The notes: generated by a model not told the origin, from the letters alone. Shown: positions 54,837 to 58,286, counted from the stretch's first letter. The stretch is 58,286 bases of DNA from Corallococcus sp. AB011P (GCF_003611605.1 NZ_RAVX01000011.1:196811-255096); one strand, 5' to 3'. Translations and numbers: made by a program.

Positions 54837-56690
54837 ATGTCTGACATCCCCAACATCATTGTCTTGGTGAGCGGAACGGTAGACCCGGTCAATAGCGACC
54901 TGAAAGCCCGCTCCGCGAGTTATCAACGCAGCAGGAACATGCTCGACCCAGATTGGTACTGGCAAGAAAACATCGGCTTGCGCAAGACCATCGAGGACCT
55001 GCGCCGACGGTACACCAACGTCCATCTCTTCACGGCCCATGGATGGACTGGAGACAATGGCGCCACCAATCGCGAGATCGCCGGGACCTACCTCGCCAAC
55101 CGCCTCTGTGGCTCCGGGGGACAAAGCGCCTACTACAAGGGCTTCCTTGGCCGCGAAGTGGCATTCCATCTCATTGGCCACTCCCATGGCGGGAATGTCA
55201 TCAACGAGCTCACGGAACAAGCCGCCAAGACGTGGCCGCGCCAATGGAAGATCCGCAGCATCACCTATCTCTCGACACCGTTCTTCACCAAGCAACACCA
55301 GGTCAACACCAAGCCGCTTCACGCAGACTGCAAGATCATCAACGTCTACAACAAGTACGACCTGACACAGCGGGTCATCGCCGATTTCTCGCTCCTGCCT
55401 TTTCATGACGCCTTTCAACGGGCGGAGTTCGACGACTTCACCACTCAACTCTCGAAGGTAAAGCTCAACACCAGCGTCCTTGAGAGCGGCATCAAGTCCA
55501 CCAGGCCCAGGGATACAGACAAGTCCCTTGGAATCAACCTGAAGCTCTTGATGGACCCCACCAAGGGGAAGGCGCTCTACGACAACTGCATCAGCACGAT
55601 AAAAAACGTCCAAGGCACCATCGCCAAGGCTCGCGAAGTCATCTGCGCGCTCAACAACGTCATCACCTTCAATGAGCCCGCCGAACTCGCAGGCAAACTC
55701 ATCAAGAAGCGGCAGATCATCAACAACGATCTCGCCAACCGCTTCCAGGCTGAACTGCTCGCGATCGAAACAAGCCTGTCCCCGACGCTCAAGGCCTTCG
55801 AAGCACGCAGAAGCAGCGGGCAATACCCCCTCATGGGATTCTTTGACGACCTGCACGCCGCCAGGTTCCTGAGGGCCCTCTCCCGGTTCCTTCAAGTCAA
55901 TCCCAAGACCCTGAGCGGCCCGCTTTGCGATCTGATCGCCGCCACCTTCGAGAACCAGCTTCAAAGCTTCGACAACACCAGCGCATCCCCGGTCTCGCAG
56001 TACGCCAAGACGCCCTTCGCGAATCGCATCGTCGACATCGACGTCACCAAGGAAGACACCTACGCGCAGTTCCACCTCGACACGGCCTATGACAAGTTCG
56101 TGGGCCGCCTGGAGAAATGCGAGGTCAGGTACGCTAGGTCCTCGGGTCGAACCGACCTGATGGATCTCATCTTCACACTCCTGGCCAACCATGCCCCCGT
56201 CAGCGCGATGATCTCCGAATGGGGAAAAACCGTAGTCACCTTCCGGCGCATCCTGGACGCGATTGTGCTCTTGCTGAAGGCAAACAAGATTCTTCCACCG
56301 AATCTGATTGCGCTTCCAACCGATCCCGTAAAACTCTTCCGCGAGGCCAGTGGAATGATCAGCATTCCAGCGGTCGCGGCGCTCGCGGAGTTGTGCGCGG
56401 TATTCGAAGCCTATGTTGGCATTCTCAAGGAACGAGGCGTTGGGCAGCTGGAGGTCACCCCCCTTTCCTCTCCGATCCTGCAGACGACTCAAGGGCAGGC
56501 CAGCTTGCGTTTCCCGTATCAGACTGCTGCACCGTCCCCACTTGCGCTTGCCAGGCAGGACTTCGCGCCTCCCGTTTCCTATGGAGGCTTGTCCTATTTC
56601 ATGCGGGTCTCACACTCAGTCAGCAGGCAGGAGTTGTATCCCAAGGTCCGCACCACCCTTGAGGAGCAGCTCACCAGCACGAAACGCTGA
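54837..56690 (+). CDS. Alpha/beta-hydrolase lipase-like protein (617 aa) with a GxSxG nucleophile elbow; candidate T6SS Tle-type phospholipase effector.
   Basis: Within ORF 54711..56690 the start is at 54837 (MSDIPNIIVLVSG...), preceded by GAGGGAG. The motif is AFHLIGHSHGGNV. Local GC is about 55-58% against about 70% in the flanks, and there are more A/T-ending codons. No signal peptide. Confidence 0.6.
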   Translation: MSDIPNIIVLVSGTVDPVNSDLKARSASYQRSRNMLDPDWYWQENIGLRKTIEDLRRRYTNVHLFTAHGWTGDNGATNREIAGTYLANRLCGSGGQSAYYKGFLGREVAFHLIGHSHGGNVINELTEQAAKTWPRQWKIRSITYLSTPFFTKQHQVNTKPLHADCKIINVYNKYDLTQRVIADFSLLPFHDAFQRAEFDDFTTQLSKVKLNTSVLESGIKSTRPRDTDKSLGINLKLLMDPTKGKALYDNCISTIKNVQGTIAKAREVICALNNVITFNEPAELAGKLIKKRQIINNDLANRFQAELLAIETSLSPTLKAFEARRSSGQYPLMGFFDDLHAARFLRALSRFLQVNPKTLSGPLCDLIAATFENQLQSFDNTSASPVSQYAKTPFANRIVDIDVTKEDTYAQFHLDTAYDKFVGRLEKCEVRYARSSGRTDLMDLIFTLLANHAPVSAMISEWGKTVVTFRRILDAIVLLLKANKILPPNLIALPTDPVKLFREASGMISIPAVAALAELCAVFEAYVGILKERGVGQLEVTPLSSPILQTTQGQASLRFPYQTAAPSPLALARQDFAPPVSYGGLSYFMRVSHSVSRQELYPKVRTTLEEQLTSTKR

Positions 56691-56699
56691 GAAATCCCT

Positions 56700-57473
56700 T
56701 CAGGGCTTCTCGGGGGCGCAGCGACCAACGGAGCCAGGCCCACAGCGTGTGCCATCCACCCAGAGGGCATGCTCCAGCTGGGCTCCTTTCAGGTCCGCAT
56801 CCAGAAGGTTCGCGCCGCGAAGGTCGGCTCCCTCTAGCGAAGCATCGCGCAAGATGGCGCCCTGAAGCTGGGCGCCTTGCAGATTGCAGTAGGCCAGGAC
56901 AGCGTCCTTCAAATCCGCTGAGCGCAAGTCCACCCGCGGCAGGCTCGCCCCGCCGCTGGGGACAGAATAGAAATGAGAACGCTCGGTGCGCTGATACGGA
57001 CCTGCTGGGCCAAAGAACCTGCTGCCGGCAAGCCGGGCATTCCGCAGATTCGCGCCCGAGAAATCCGCACTCTCCAGGGAGCGTGCGCCTTGAAGGTCCG
57101 CCCCTTCCAGATTGGCGTCCTGGAATTGGGTGCCCGTCAGGTAGGCACCCTCGAACAGGGCTCCTTGCAGCTCGGAGTGCCGCAGGTCGCTTGCGGCCAG
57201 GGAGGCCCCACGCAGATCCGCGCCACGCAGATTCGCCCGGGCCAGCTGTGCTTCTCGCAGGGAGGCATCCCGGAGCTGCGCCCCTGGCAACACGGCTCCC
57301 TCCAGACGCGCCCCCACCAGCTGACAGCCGTTACACGCCTTGGTTTCCATGAACCCACGAACAAGCTTGTCCTGGGCGCTTTCGCAGCTTGTCAGCAGGC
57401 CCACCGACAACGTCGCGGGAATCACGAGGCGAACAAAGGGGGACCGCCAGCGAGGAGGAGAAGCCGACGTCAT
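56700..57473 (-). CDS. Pentapeptide-repeat lipoprotein (257 aa).
   Basis: Within ORF 56700..57608 the start is at 57473 (MTSASPPRWRSPFVRLVIPATLSVGLLTSC, lipobox L-T-S-C). Tandem A(D/N)LxxAxLxGAxL pentapeptide repeats follow (ANLRGADLRGASLAASDLRHSELQGALFEGAYLTGTQFQDANLEGADLQGA). Confidence 0.65.
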   Translation of the reverse strand: MTSASPPRWRSPFVRLVIPATLSVGLLTSCESAQDKLVRGFMETKACNGCQLVGARLEGAVLPGAQLRDASLREAQLARANLRGADLRGASLAASDLRHSELQGALFEGAYLTGTQFQDANLEGADLQGARSLESADFSGANLRNARLAGSRFFGPAGPYQRTERSHFYSVPSGGASLPRVDLRSADLKDAVLAYCNLQGAQLQGAILRDASLEGADLRGANLLDADLKGAQLEHALWVDGTRCGPGSVGRCAPEKP

Positions 57474-57664
57474 GACAAGACCCCTGGTGCCAGCGGTTGG
57501 GCTCATACGTCTCGTGAGCGGACGAGGCCCCGGCCTCGCGGGGCAGCAAAGTACGCGGATACCACGGTGAACGCGGGATTGAACAGGAGGCGATGCGCCT
57601 CCAAGCACCTACAGCCCGTTCCACCGCGGTGGATGGACCGGTAATAGCCGGGTAGACCCGCCCA

Positions 57665-58162
57665 ATGATGAATGTCCGCAGCAGCGCGTGGCTGGGACTC
57701 CTCCTGTTGGCGGCATCTTGCAAGCCGCCGAAGCCGGTGGAACCTCCTGCGGCGGGTCCCCAGGAGTCCACAGGTCTCGCGAAGCCCGTCTCACTGGAGA
57801 TCAACGGCTACAACTACACCGACCTCGCCATCGACAGCTTCGAGGTGAACGGCCAGGGCGGTGGTGACCTCTCGGTCAGTTCGACGACCAGCGGTGGAGG
57901 CAAGGGCACCTGTTGTCTGGGGCTCTCGCCTGGCACGAAGTTCCCCGTGGAGCTGACCATCCAGTGGACACGGGACCGGAAGCGTTGGTGTGAAAAGACC
58001 GTCCAACTCGAGGCCCCTGTCACCGCCAACCCGCGTCACATCGGAGTGCACTTCTTCCCGGATGGACGCATCAAAGCTGAGCTCACCGAAGGCTACCCAG
58101 ACTTGAAGTTGAAGCTCGACCGGGTGAAGAATGCCTTCATCATTCTCTCGGGTGGCCCCTGA
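57665..58162 (+). CDS. Small lipoprotein (165 aa) of unknown function; a candidate immunity protein.
   Basis: Signal peptide with lipobox (MMNVRSSAWLGLLLLAASC). It lies immediately upstream of the IS3 fragment. Confidence 0.55.
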   Translation: MMNVRSSAWLGLLLLAASCKPPKPVEPPAAGPQESTGLAKPVSLEINGYNYTDLAIDSFEVNGQGGGDLSVSSTTSGGGKGTCCLGLSPGTKFPVELTIQWTRDRKRWCEKTVQLEAPVTANPRHIGVHFFPDGRIKAELTEGYPDLKLKLDRVKNAFIILSGGP

Positions 58163-58190
58163 GCGTCACCCGCTTCGGTGGACAGGTTGA

Positions 58191-58286
58191 CTACGCTGCC
58201 TGCCTCGAAACCTCAGCCAGTCGCTCGTACTCGGCTGGACTCGCATAGCCAAGTGAGGAGTGACGGCGCCTGCGGTTGTAGAACAC
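58191..58286 (-). mobile_element. C-terminal end of an IS3-family transposase (integrase catalytic region); the rest of the IS lies beyond the window end.
   Basis: The reverse complement of 58191..58286 reads VFYNRRRRHSSLGYASPAEYERLAEVSRQAA*. This is the conserved IS3 OrfB C-terminal motif (fYN..R.HsaLgY.sP.eyE). Confidence 0.7.

Follow-up and report, generated by a model that had tools for sequence, protein, structure and literature searches.

A candidate lipase-type effector of an unnamed family and its likely pentapeptide-repeat immunity lipoprotein beside a Francisella-like type VI secretion cluster in Corallococcus

RESULTS

Organization and base composition of the locus

The present analysis concerns the distal end of a 58,286-nucleotide stretch of the genome of Corallococcus sp. 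AB011P (NZ_RAVX01000011.1, 196811–255096; 'the window' hereafter designates this whole stretch, and coordinates are counted from its first letter). A gene for a serine α/β-hydrolase, a candidate type VI secretion system (T6SS) cargo effector, is followed there by two lipoprotein genes and the end of an insertion sequence (IS):

54837–56690, plus strand: serine α/β-hydrolase of 617 amino acids (aa), candidate T6SS cargo effector.
56700–57473, minus strand: pentapeptide-repeat lipoprotein of 257 aa (starting MTSASPPRW; Pfam PF00805), candidate cognate immunity protein.
57628–57664, no strand: synteny breakpoint, located by blastn against relatives.
57665–58162, plus strand: DUF3304 (Tli1-type) lipoprotein gene, 165 aa, C-terminally truncated (PF11745).
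58127–58286, minus strand: putative end of an IS3-family element; the transposase C-terminus occupies 58191–58286 and the gene runs off the window.

A preliminary description, made from the nucleotide sequence alone, had listed a hydrolase with the motif GHSHGG and no signal peptide, a pentapeptide-repeat lipoprotein, a small lipoprotein and the tail of an IS3 transposase, and all four are present, the minus-strand orientation of the pentapeptide gene having gone unmentioned. The ATG of the hydrolase gene is preceded by GGGAG and separated by 28 bp from the stop codon of the upstream gene, whereas the pentapeptide gene is convergent with it, at a distance of 9 bp. Between 54 and 58.3 kb, a promoter and terminator scan was uninformative and a repeat search returned only the repeats of the pentapeptide coding sequence.

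The composition of the cassette is atypical, as had been noticed for the hydrolase. Its gene has a GC content of 57.9% and a GC content at third codon positions (GC3) of 0.77, the corresponding GC3 values being 0.71 for the pentapeptide gene and 0.78 for the DUF3304 gene, as compared with 0.94–0.96 in the T6SS core genes; the window has 70.2% GC overall and about 73% in its left half. The closest protein and DNA matches of the region are found in Corallococcus strains, at about 91–92% (91% identity for the best hydrolase match). Horizontal acquisition had been postulated from the composition and the IS; the atypical composition and the mobility of the island are confirmed.

Fold and predicted active site of the hydrolase

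The N-terminus of the protein is devoid of a hydrophobic signal and opens with the first β strand, MSDIPNIIVLVSG. The protein fits the α/β-hydrolase fold of serine hydrolases, which is defined by a central β-sheet, a nucleophile in a GxSxG elbow that follows strand 5, an acid behind strand 7 and a His towards the C-terminal end. The only GxSxG motif is GHSHG at residue 114, with S116 as the nucleophile; a strand at residues 108–115 leads into this elbow, and a second one, at 161–171, precedes D175. In a set of 79 distinct homologues that spans several phyla, S116, D175 (in YDLTQR), H111, H115, H117 and D407 are invariant, while H154 and H593 are each present in 77. The latter residue, about 25 residues from the C-terminus, belongs to the motif SHS[VL]S[RH], which reads SHSVSR in the window protein. 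Conservation, taken together with the order of secondary-structure elements, makes S116–D175–H593 the probable catalytic triad, and provides candidates for the Asp and His partners that the preliminary description had left to be found. Because the invariant His motif stands at the extreme C-terminus, the mostly helical region of about 400 aa between Asp and His is read as an insertion within the hydrolase fold, which would have displaced the catalytic His to the end of the protein.

Sequence and family-profile searches of the PDB yielded no meaningful match. Fold matches were generic and comprised esterases, thioesterases, cutinases and lipases, with the true lipases 8yye, 8s9r and 5ce5 among the top ones. 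In Pfam, the window hydrolase matched Abhydrolase_1/6 below threshold only, and NCBIfam assigned it to no family. Across 40 family members, the commonest weak Pfam match was to LCAT (13 of 40), a phospholipase/acyltransferase family, with sporadic matches to PGAP1, LIDHydrolase and DUF915. An injected serine hydrolase with such a profile might act on something other than a phospholipid, for example peptidoglycan O-acetyl groups, the acyl chains of lipoproteins or lipopolysaccharide, or another ester or thioester; the generic character of the structural matches and the failure of specific lipase models to match above threshold would suit this possibility. We nevertheless hold it to be rather unlikely, since the recurrent weak matches are lipid-directed, true lipases stand among the best fold matches, the cassettes exchanged at the same site are lipases, and the small integral-membrane proteins encoded next to the homologues of Bacteroidota (see below) suit a membrane-directed toxin.

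The preliminary description had likened the hydrolase to the Tle families of T6SS lipase effectors, which did not hold for Tle1, Tle2, Tle3 and Tle5. Neither the window hydrolase nor any of the 40 family members matched PF09994 (Tle1), PF01764 (Lipase_3, Tle2 type) or DUF3274 (PF11678, Tle3), and the dual HxKxxxxD motifs of the phospholipase D type (Tle5) are absent from the hydrolase. BLASTP gave no match to the Tle1-like and Lipase_3-like proteins of the hotspot described below; hhalign returned a probability of 1% for the Corallococcus Tle1-like protein and of 3% for the Lipase_3-like effector of Corallococcus sp. M7, in both cases over the nucleophile strand only. No Tle structure was found among the top fold matches. 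By these comparisons, the hydrolase is not a member of Tle1, Tle2 (Lipase_3 type), Tle3 or Tle5.

Distribution of the family and linkage to injection machinery

A search of 5.8 billion proteins gave 429 matches. Where a source name is given, it goes no further than 'alpha/beta hydrolase' or 'hypothetical protein', and a precomputed Pfam domain, PF19267, is present in a few only. When 1.84 billion cluster representatives were searched exhaustively with a profile, no more than 432 were retrieved at E≤1e-3, and 117 of them at E≤1e-30; in view of so few representatives, the family is small and rare. It is also unnamed, having neither a Pfam nor an NCBIfam model.

Gene neighbourhoods were examined at 80 loci from reference genomes, where neighbours were annotated by crude gene calls (longest open reading frames, with a GC3 filter for high-GC DNA), Pfam and local hidden Markov models (HMMs). 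Outside the Myxococcaceae, genes of VgrG and/or of the Hcp family flank the homologue in 51 of 62 loci, several of the 11 others being contigs of only 2–3 kb, and the immediately upstream gene encodes VgrG in 19. The homologues of Bacteroidota (Chryseobacterium, Flavobacterium, Elizabethkingia, Pedobacter and others) reside in hcp(TssD)–vgrG islands, often straight after vgrG. Those of Campylobacterota and Gammaproteobacteria come directly behind vgrG, or behind vgrG and a gene for a DUF4123 adaptor, which is the directly upstream gene at two loci (L031 and L039); vgrG–DUF4123 also lies beside the homologue at some Polyangia-type loci of Myxococcota. Moreover, an N-terminal CIS_spike_tip domain (PF19267) is fused to some homologues, as a Pfam scan confirmed for P0057 and P0097. 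The linkage to vgrG, hcp and DUF4123 across phyla, the spike-tip fusion and a hotspot shared with Tle1/Tli1 cassettes lend good support to the T6SS effector that the preliminary description had put forward as a candidate, and which stays a predicted one.

Long N-terminal extensions occur as well: about 540 aa without a Pfam match in P0220 (1101 aa), and a LysM domain in P0282 (707 aa). The LysM domain that heads both P0282 and the Lipase_3-like effector of Corallococcus sp. M7 hints at a shared N-terminal module for loading or targeting.

A housekeeping cytoplasmic esterase that adjoins the T6SS by chance would likewise lack a signal peptide, and several Myxococcota copies are indeed located far from T6SS genes. 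Such an enzyme is nonetheless barely conceivable here, given a family that is rare, patchy and absent from some sister strains, its atypical composition, its association with vgrG and hcp across phyla and its fusion to a spike tip.

The 3′ end of the T6SS cluster as a cassette hotspot

The position of the hydrolase gene, behind the tssM–iglE–giant lipoprotein genes, is shared by three other Corallococcus genomes (L002, L003 and L005). The same site of C. coralloides CP034669 (L086) holds a DUF3304 gene, a gene for a 635-aa Tle1-like protein (PF09994) and the gene for the pentapeptide lipoprotein. The pentapeptide region of this strain is 95% identical in nucleotide sequence to window positions 56654–57603, including the last 37 nt of the hydrolase gene; as the match spans both the 3′ end of the hydrolase gene and the pentapeptide gene, the hydrolase was replaced there and its neighbour kept. 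In Corallococcus sp. M7 (L085), the site contains a LysM/Lipase_3-like 585-aa protein, two unknown genes, a DUF3304 gene, a Tle1-like gene and a rhomboid gene, the last of which lies beyond the site in L002 too. The site is thus a swappable effector/immunity hotspot, which in Corallococcus also accommodates bona fide Tle1/Tli1 cassettes. Since the hydrolase is swapped at one site with bona fide T6SS lipase/immunity pairs, it may be taken for T6SS cargo of the same general kind, and cassette exchange constitutes strong circumstantial evidence for that role.

The Lipase_3-type cassette of Corallococcus sp. M7 (L085 6088–9930) consists of the 585-aa LysM and Lipase_3/Phospholipase-like protein (GHSLG), followed by the unknown genes, of 328 and 361 aa. 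A lone 328-aa gene with 65% identity to its counterpart in that cassette is found just upstream of the hydrolase gene in L003 (8989–9975); devoid of a signal peptide, its product looks like that of an orphaned accessory or immunity gene.

The second lipoprotein of the window matches PF11745 (E=6e-10, 39.8 bits against a cut-off of 22) and, below the cut-off of 110, the NCBIfam model Tli1a_fam (E=1.7e-10, 41 bits). By pattern inspection its signal ends in ...LLLLAASC, and the homologue P0126 is named 'Lipoprotein' by its source. DUF3304 is the domain of Tli1 immunity proteins, which counteract Tle1 phospholipases (PMC13133936). The Corallococcus orthologues (175–196 aa) are always encoded directly upstream of a Tle1-like (PF09994) gene, which they overlap. 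The alignment of the window with its closest relatives L002 and L005, at about 92% nucleotide identity, stops at 57627, from where both run on into the rhomboid gene, and homology to the Tli1–Tle1 cassette of other strains begins at about 57673. Thereafter, the window copy diverges from all full-length copies after ...KLKLDRV and stops 12 codons later; nucleotide homology to tli1 is lost at 58126, and the last 12 codons would stem from the inserted element. A putative IS3-type terminus, TGAAG, was read from the sequence at about 58126, 65 bp beyond the stop codon of the transposase, whose last 31 codons (minus strand, 58191–58286) end in FYNRRRRHSSLGYASPAEYERLAEVSRQAA and match positions 350–369 of the 369 of NCBIfam transpos_IS3 (E=2.9e-5). 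As homology stops where TGAAG begins, the 3′ end of a tli1-type gene appears to be the point at which an IS3-family element inserted or recombined. The tle1 gene expected as its partner has either been lost or lies beyond the IS.

The preliminary description had envisaged either lipoprotein as an immunity partner of the hydrolase. That both of them serve this purpose might seem suggested by three adjacent genes with lowered GC3 and by the established action of DUF3304 proteins against Tle1-family lipase effectors (PMC13133936). However, a DUF3304 gene adjoins the hydrolase gene in this window only, a search of 84 hydrolase loci having found no relative of the DUF3304 protein; synteny with L002 and L005 ends just before the gene, the Corallococcus orthologues consistently pair with Tle1-like genes, and the window copy is apparently cut short by the IS. 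On these grounds, we rejected the idea that the DUF3304 protein also protects against the hydrolase, the two-lipoprotein model being highly improbable; by the same comparisons, the DUF3304 gene appears to be a Tli1-type immunity gene of a separate Tle1 cassette, not linked to the hydrolase.

The pentapeptide-repeat lipoprotein and other downstream partners

The pairing of the hydrolase with a lipoprotein does stand for the pentapeptide-repeat protein. The latter matches PF00805 over five stretches (E=1.4e-44, 149.6 bits against a cut-off of 20.2), and pattern inspection shows a signal peptide that ends in the lipobox LTSC (...LSVGLLTSC), the Cys of which is kept in nearly all orthologues. In addition to this Cys, the orthologues share an N-terminal CxxC pair, a C-terminal Cys pair and a loop that interrupts the repeats (GPAGPYQRTERSHFYSVPSGG), four features that together point to a folded periplasmic protein. 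Partial matches to the NCBIfam models for Qnr, MfpA, HetL and PipB2 all fell far below the cut-offs. T6SS papers describe pentapeptide repeats in cytoplasmic accessory factors such as TagAB; a TagAB-like role was considered and rejected, the present protein being a lipoprotein.

Of 20 distinct hydrolase loci in Myxococcota, 19 have a match to an HMM of this protein just downstream of the hydrolase gene and on the other strand. The linked pair occurs in Corallococcus, Archangium, Cystobacter, Pyxidicoccus, Citreicoccus and Hyalangium, as well as in metagenome-assembled genomes of Polyangiales, and the linkage persists down to about 32% hydrolase identity. Two pentapeptide copies stand in tandem in four distinct Archangium loci, and an aldo-keto-reductase-like gene lies between the two partners in Citreicoccus. 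The sole exception among the 20 loci is that of a Cystobacter paralogue (L015), where a secreted protein with FG-GAP-like repeats is encoded instead.

Beyond the Myxococcota, the immediate downstream gene differs, yet it encodes an exported or membrane-bound protein. At loci of Campylobacterota and Gammaproteobacteria (L029–L032, L035, L039, L041, L042, L049, L061, L078 and L080), one to three leucine-rich-repeat (LRR) proteins of about 320–430 aa are found, the immediate neighbour having about 340. They carry signal peptides and, close to the start of the mature protein, a conserved C(K/N)NPT motif, and are candidates for LRR-type immunity. In Bacteroidota (L044–L084), the next gene encodes a very hydrophobic protein of about 90–150 aa (around 110) with multiple transmembrane segments and no Pfam match, which probably confers immunity to effectors of this family from within the membrane. 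The FG-GAP-like protein of Cystobacter fuscus (L015 11966–12970, plus strand; 334 aa, secreted, with DxDGDG repeats), whose neighbouring hydrolase paralogue has 41% identity, may represent a fourth partner type.

Proteins that confer immunity to toxins acting in the periplasm are usually marked by tight linkage, duplication, retention as an orphan and export, for which reason we consider the pentapeptide lipoprotein a likely cognate immunity protein of the hydrolase. Alternatively, the hydrolase may be a T6SS effector while the pentapeptide protein is an unrelated envelope protein, a target-mimicking decoy for something else or an accessory, protection being conferred by another gene or, if the effector is anti-eukaryotic, being needless. 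This would account for a gene that is convergent rather than in operon with the hydrolase gene, and would accord with the accessory role known for pentapeptide proteins of T6SS loci (TagAB), with the unrelated neighbours of the family outside the Myxococcota and with the FG-GAP-like protein downstream of the Cystobacter paralogue. T6SS effector families, though, commonly change immunity type between clades, and the known pentapeptide accessory factors are cytoplasmic whereas this protein is exported. Adjacency maintained across nearly all Myxococcota loci and at low hydrolase identity, tandem duplication, and orphan retention after loss of the effector, which are typical of immunity genes, render the alternative unlikely.

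Injection systems encoded in the window

Upstream of the cassette, the window carries the following features:

31944–48928, both strands: Francisella-like T6SS core genes (Pfam and NCBIfam).
48938–54808, plus strand: lipoprotein of 1956 aa with HYDIN/ASH immunoglobulin (Ig)-like domains (Pfam).
3–25976, minus strand: cluster resembling extracellular contractile injection systems (eCIS) and phage tails, separate from the T6SS cluster.
26723–29164, plus strand: multi-PAS histidine kinase, between the eCIS-like and T6SS clusters.
30364–32046, plus strand: AMP-binding-enzyme-like gene, between the same two clusters.

The T6SS cluster encodes a DUF4280 PAAR-like protein, TssF, a weak match to TssG, an IglI-family protein (NCBIfam, 240 bits), the sheath proteins VipB/VipA, TssK, a short VgrG of 192 aa, DotU, a TssM-like protein of 1233 aa and an IglE_N lipoprotein, as well as a 215-aa product in the IglC position, for which no match was detectable. 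In the PDB, the sheath protein is matched best by Francisella IglB, and no ClpV was seen within the window. Judging from this gene content, the cluster is Francisella-like, i.e. similar to the T6SS of type ii (T6SSii). A 2026 paper describes T6SSii as unique to Francisella (PMC12955703), and in the literature searched, which covered titles open without subscription, we found no report of it in Myxococcota. A myxobacterial relative equipped with what appears to be antibacterial-type cargo is therefore notable.

The giant lipoprotein gene directly follows iglE, is co-directional with the hydrolase gene and is the last conserved gene ahead of the variable effector site. The hydrolase had been described as immediately downstream of the T6SS operon, which is correct with the qualification that this Ig-domain lipoprotein gene, conserved with tssM–iglE, lies between. 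Its product has at least 12 Ig-like domains of the HYDIN/ASH/Cep192 type and is kept at this position in four other Corallococcus genomes (L002, L003, L085 and L086; 1670–1935 aa). The C-terminus, composed of GGGCACG, a hydrophobic stretch and RRAQERG, resembles a sorting signal of the MYXO-CTERM type, and the protein may be a surface accessory of the T6SS.

The eCIS-like cluster comprises a sheath gene (21680–24007), two gp19-type tube genes, CIS_tube, a 1255-aa protein containing Baseplate_J, a Tail_P2_I/Kelch protein of 1290 aa and a β-helix protein with DUF6519 that exceeds 2272 aa and runs off the window. Two different contractile injection systems thus lie within 55 kb of the window. The histidine kinase and the AMP-binding-enzyme-like protein may be regulators or accessories of one of them.

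The hydrolase might accordingly be cargo of the eCIS-like cluster (about 1–26 kb), or of yet another contractile injection system, and not of the adjacent T6SS. The window cluster does possess a sheath, tubes and baseplate components, and Pfam describes PF19267, present on some homologues, as a spike tip protein of contractile injection systems. However, the eCIS-like cluster is about 30 kb away on the other strand, whereas the T6SS operon ends 28 bp upstream in the same direction. Furthermore, the homologues are linked to the T6SS-specific Hcp/TssD, VgrG with gp5 domains and DUF4123 adaptor, the site swaps the hydrolase for Tle1/Tli1, an established T6SS pair, and a periplasmic immunity lipoprotein suits cell-to-cell attack by a T6SS. 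Delivery by another injection system thus appears very unlikely.

DISCUSSION

The hydrolase of this locus is likely an injected toxin, carried most probably by the adjacent Francisella-like T6SS, with the pentapeptide lipoprotein as its antidote. Following this reading, the enzyme, which lacks a signal peptide, would be loaded on the VgrG/PAAR-like spike and fired into a neighbouring Gram-negative cell, to act on the periplasmic or membrane side. There, the Ser116–Asp175–His593 triad would hydrolyse an ester, most likely that of a membrane phospholipid. The producer and its kin would be protected by the exported pentapeptide lipoprotein, which may bind and block the enzyme in the periplasm. 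The pair would form part of a recombination hotspot that offers alternative lipase-type cassettes across Corallococcus, the DUF3304 gene presumably being the immunity half of another such cassette (Tle1/Tli1), cut by insertion of the IS3 element. Fold, conserved residues, gene linkage and the swapping of cassettes are seen in the sequences themselves; secretion, substrate, toxicity and immunity by direct binding are what we infer.

Several observations weigh against this interpretation. H593 falls in a predicted helix and not in the canonical loop. The proposed immunity gene is convergent with that of the effector, an orientation unusual for effector/immunity pairs, and our literature search found no pentapeptide-repeat protein that acts as a T6SS immunity protein. 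T6SS genes are absent within 10 kb of the hydrolase–pentapeptide pair in Archangium, Cystobacter, Pyxidicoccus, Citreicoccus and Hyalangium; placement away from the T6SS is common for effectors, yet it weakens the argument drawn from the local context. Finally, the name of PF19267 refers to contractile injection systems at large and not to the T6SS, and an eCIS-like cluster is also present in the window.

The preliminary interpretation is partly supported: it was largely right in kind, the locus being a horizontally mobile T6SS effector/immunity island, and wrong with respect to the family membership of the hydrolase and the role of the second lipoprotein. On present sequence evidence, the hydrolase is best described as a new family within the known class of lipase-type T6SS effectors, paired with a likely immunity protein of a new type. 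Lipases delivered by the T6SS are major weapons against both bacteria and hosts, and five families of them are currently distinguished. It is tempting to combine our observations into a single proposal, which we put forward tentatively, its chances falling somewhat short of even. The hydrolase would represent a sixth type of T6SS lipase, spread over several phyla, in which some 400 residues of helical insertion set the catalytic His apart from Ser and Asp. Solenoid repeat proteins would be among those that confer immunity to it: in Myxococcota a periplasmic pentapeptide lipoprotein, in Campylobacterota and Gammaproteobacteria LRR proteins equipped with signal peptides. The former would be the first pentapeptide-repeat enzyme inhibitor or immunity factor to act in the periplasm. 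The T6SSii, so far regarded as restricted to Francisella and directed at hosts, would in myxobacteria be an antibacterial weapon with a swappable site for lipase cargo.

If this proves true, an unannotated family of a sixth type, linked to vgrG/hcp in at least four phyla, will extend effector catalogues and genome annotation, and periplasmic immunity by pentapeptide or LRR proteins will give a new role to repeat folds so far known chiefly for mimicking DNA or binding ligands. The locus itself shows cassette exchange, orphaning and apparent breakage by an IS at a single site within one genus. Attached as it is to a Francisella-like T6SS in a predatory soil bacterium, the hotspot appears to be a tractable system to study T6SSii-like function outside Francisella.

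The literature searched contained no paper on this hydrolase family and none on immunity to T6SS lipases by pentapeptide or LRR proteins, and a query for Tle6/7/8 returned only unrelated eukaryotic TLE genes. Among the known systems, the Tle1–Tli1 pair offers the most immediate parallel, with a GxSxG hydrolase devoid of a signal peptide, homologues linked to VgrG and DUF4123, a periplasmic-lipoprotein neighbour and residence at the same hotspot. In contrast, the elbow is GHSHGG in the present enzyme and GFSRG in the Tle1-like protein, and the partner is a pentapeptide-repeat protein instead of a DUF3304 β-sandwich. Tle3 of Pseudomonas aeruginosa and of adherent-invasive Escherichia coli (AIEC), which is toxic in the periplasm (PMC6560169), resembles the hydrolase in size (about 600–650 aa) and in combining an N-terminal α/β-hydrolase domain with a large extra domain; in Tle3, however, DUF3274 follows the hydrolase domain, whereas the helical region described here is apparently inserted within the fold. 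Effectors of the Tle2/TseL type (Lipase_3, PF01764) and Tle4/TplE are likewise GxSxG lipase-type T6SS effectors with periplasmic immunity proteins, and a Lipase_3-like effector takes the same hotspot in Corallococcus sp. M7.

The putative immunity protein has the PF00805 repeat type in common with Qnr, MfpA, AlbG, McbG and TagAB. Qnr, MfpA, AlbG and McbG are cytoplasmic DNA mimics that protect gyrase, and Qnr, AlbG and McbG are self-protection proteins as well. Unlike these, the protein encoded here is a predicted exported lipoprotein with Cys pairs and a conserved inserted loop; it differs equally from TagAB, a cytoplasmic spike-assembly factor.

The T6SS cluster, for its part, shares with the T6SSii of Francisella (encoded by the Francisella pathogenicity island, FPI) the IglE_N and IglI-family proteins, the DUF4280 PAAR-like protein, a short VgrG, a sheath closest to IglB and, within the window, the lack of ClpV. 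It departs from it in its host, a soil myxobacterium, in the giant Ig-domain lipoprotein that forms part of the cluster, and in its predicted cargo, which would consist of antibacterial-type lipase/immunity pairs in place of the Pdp/Opi effectors of Francisella.

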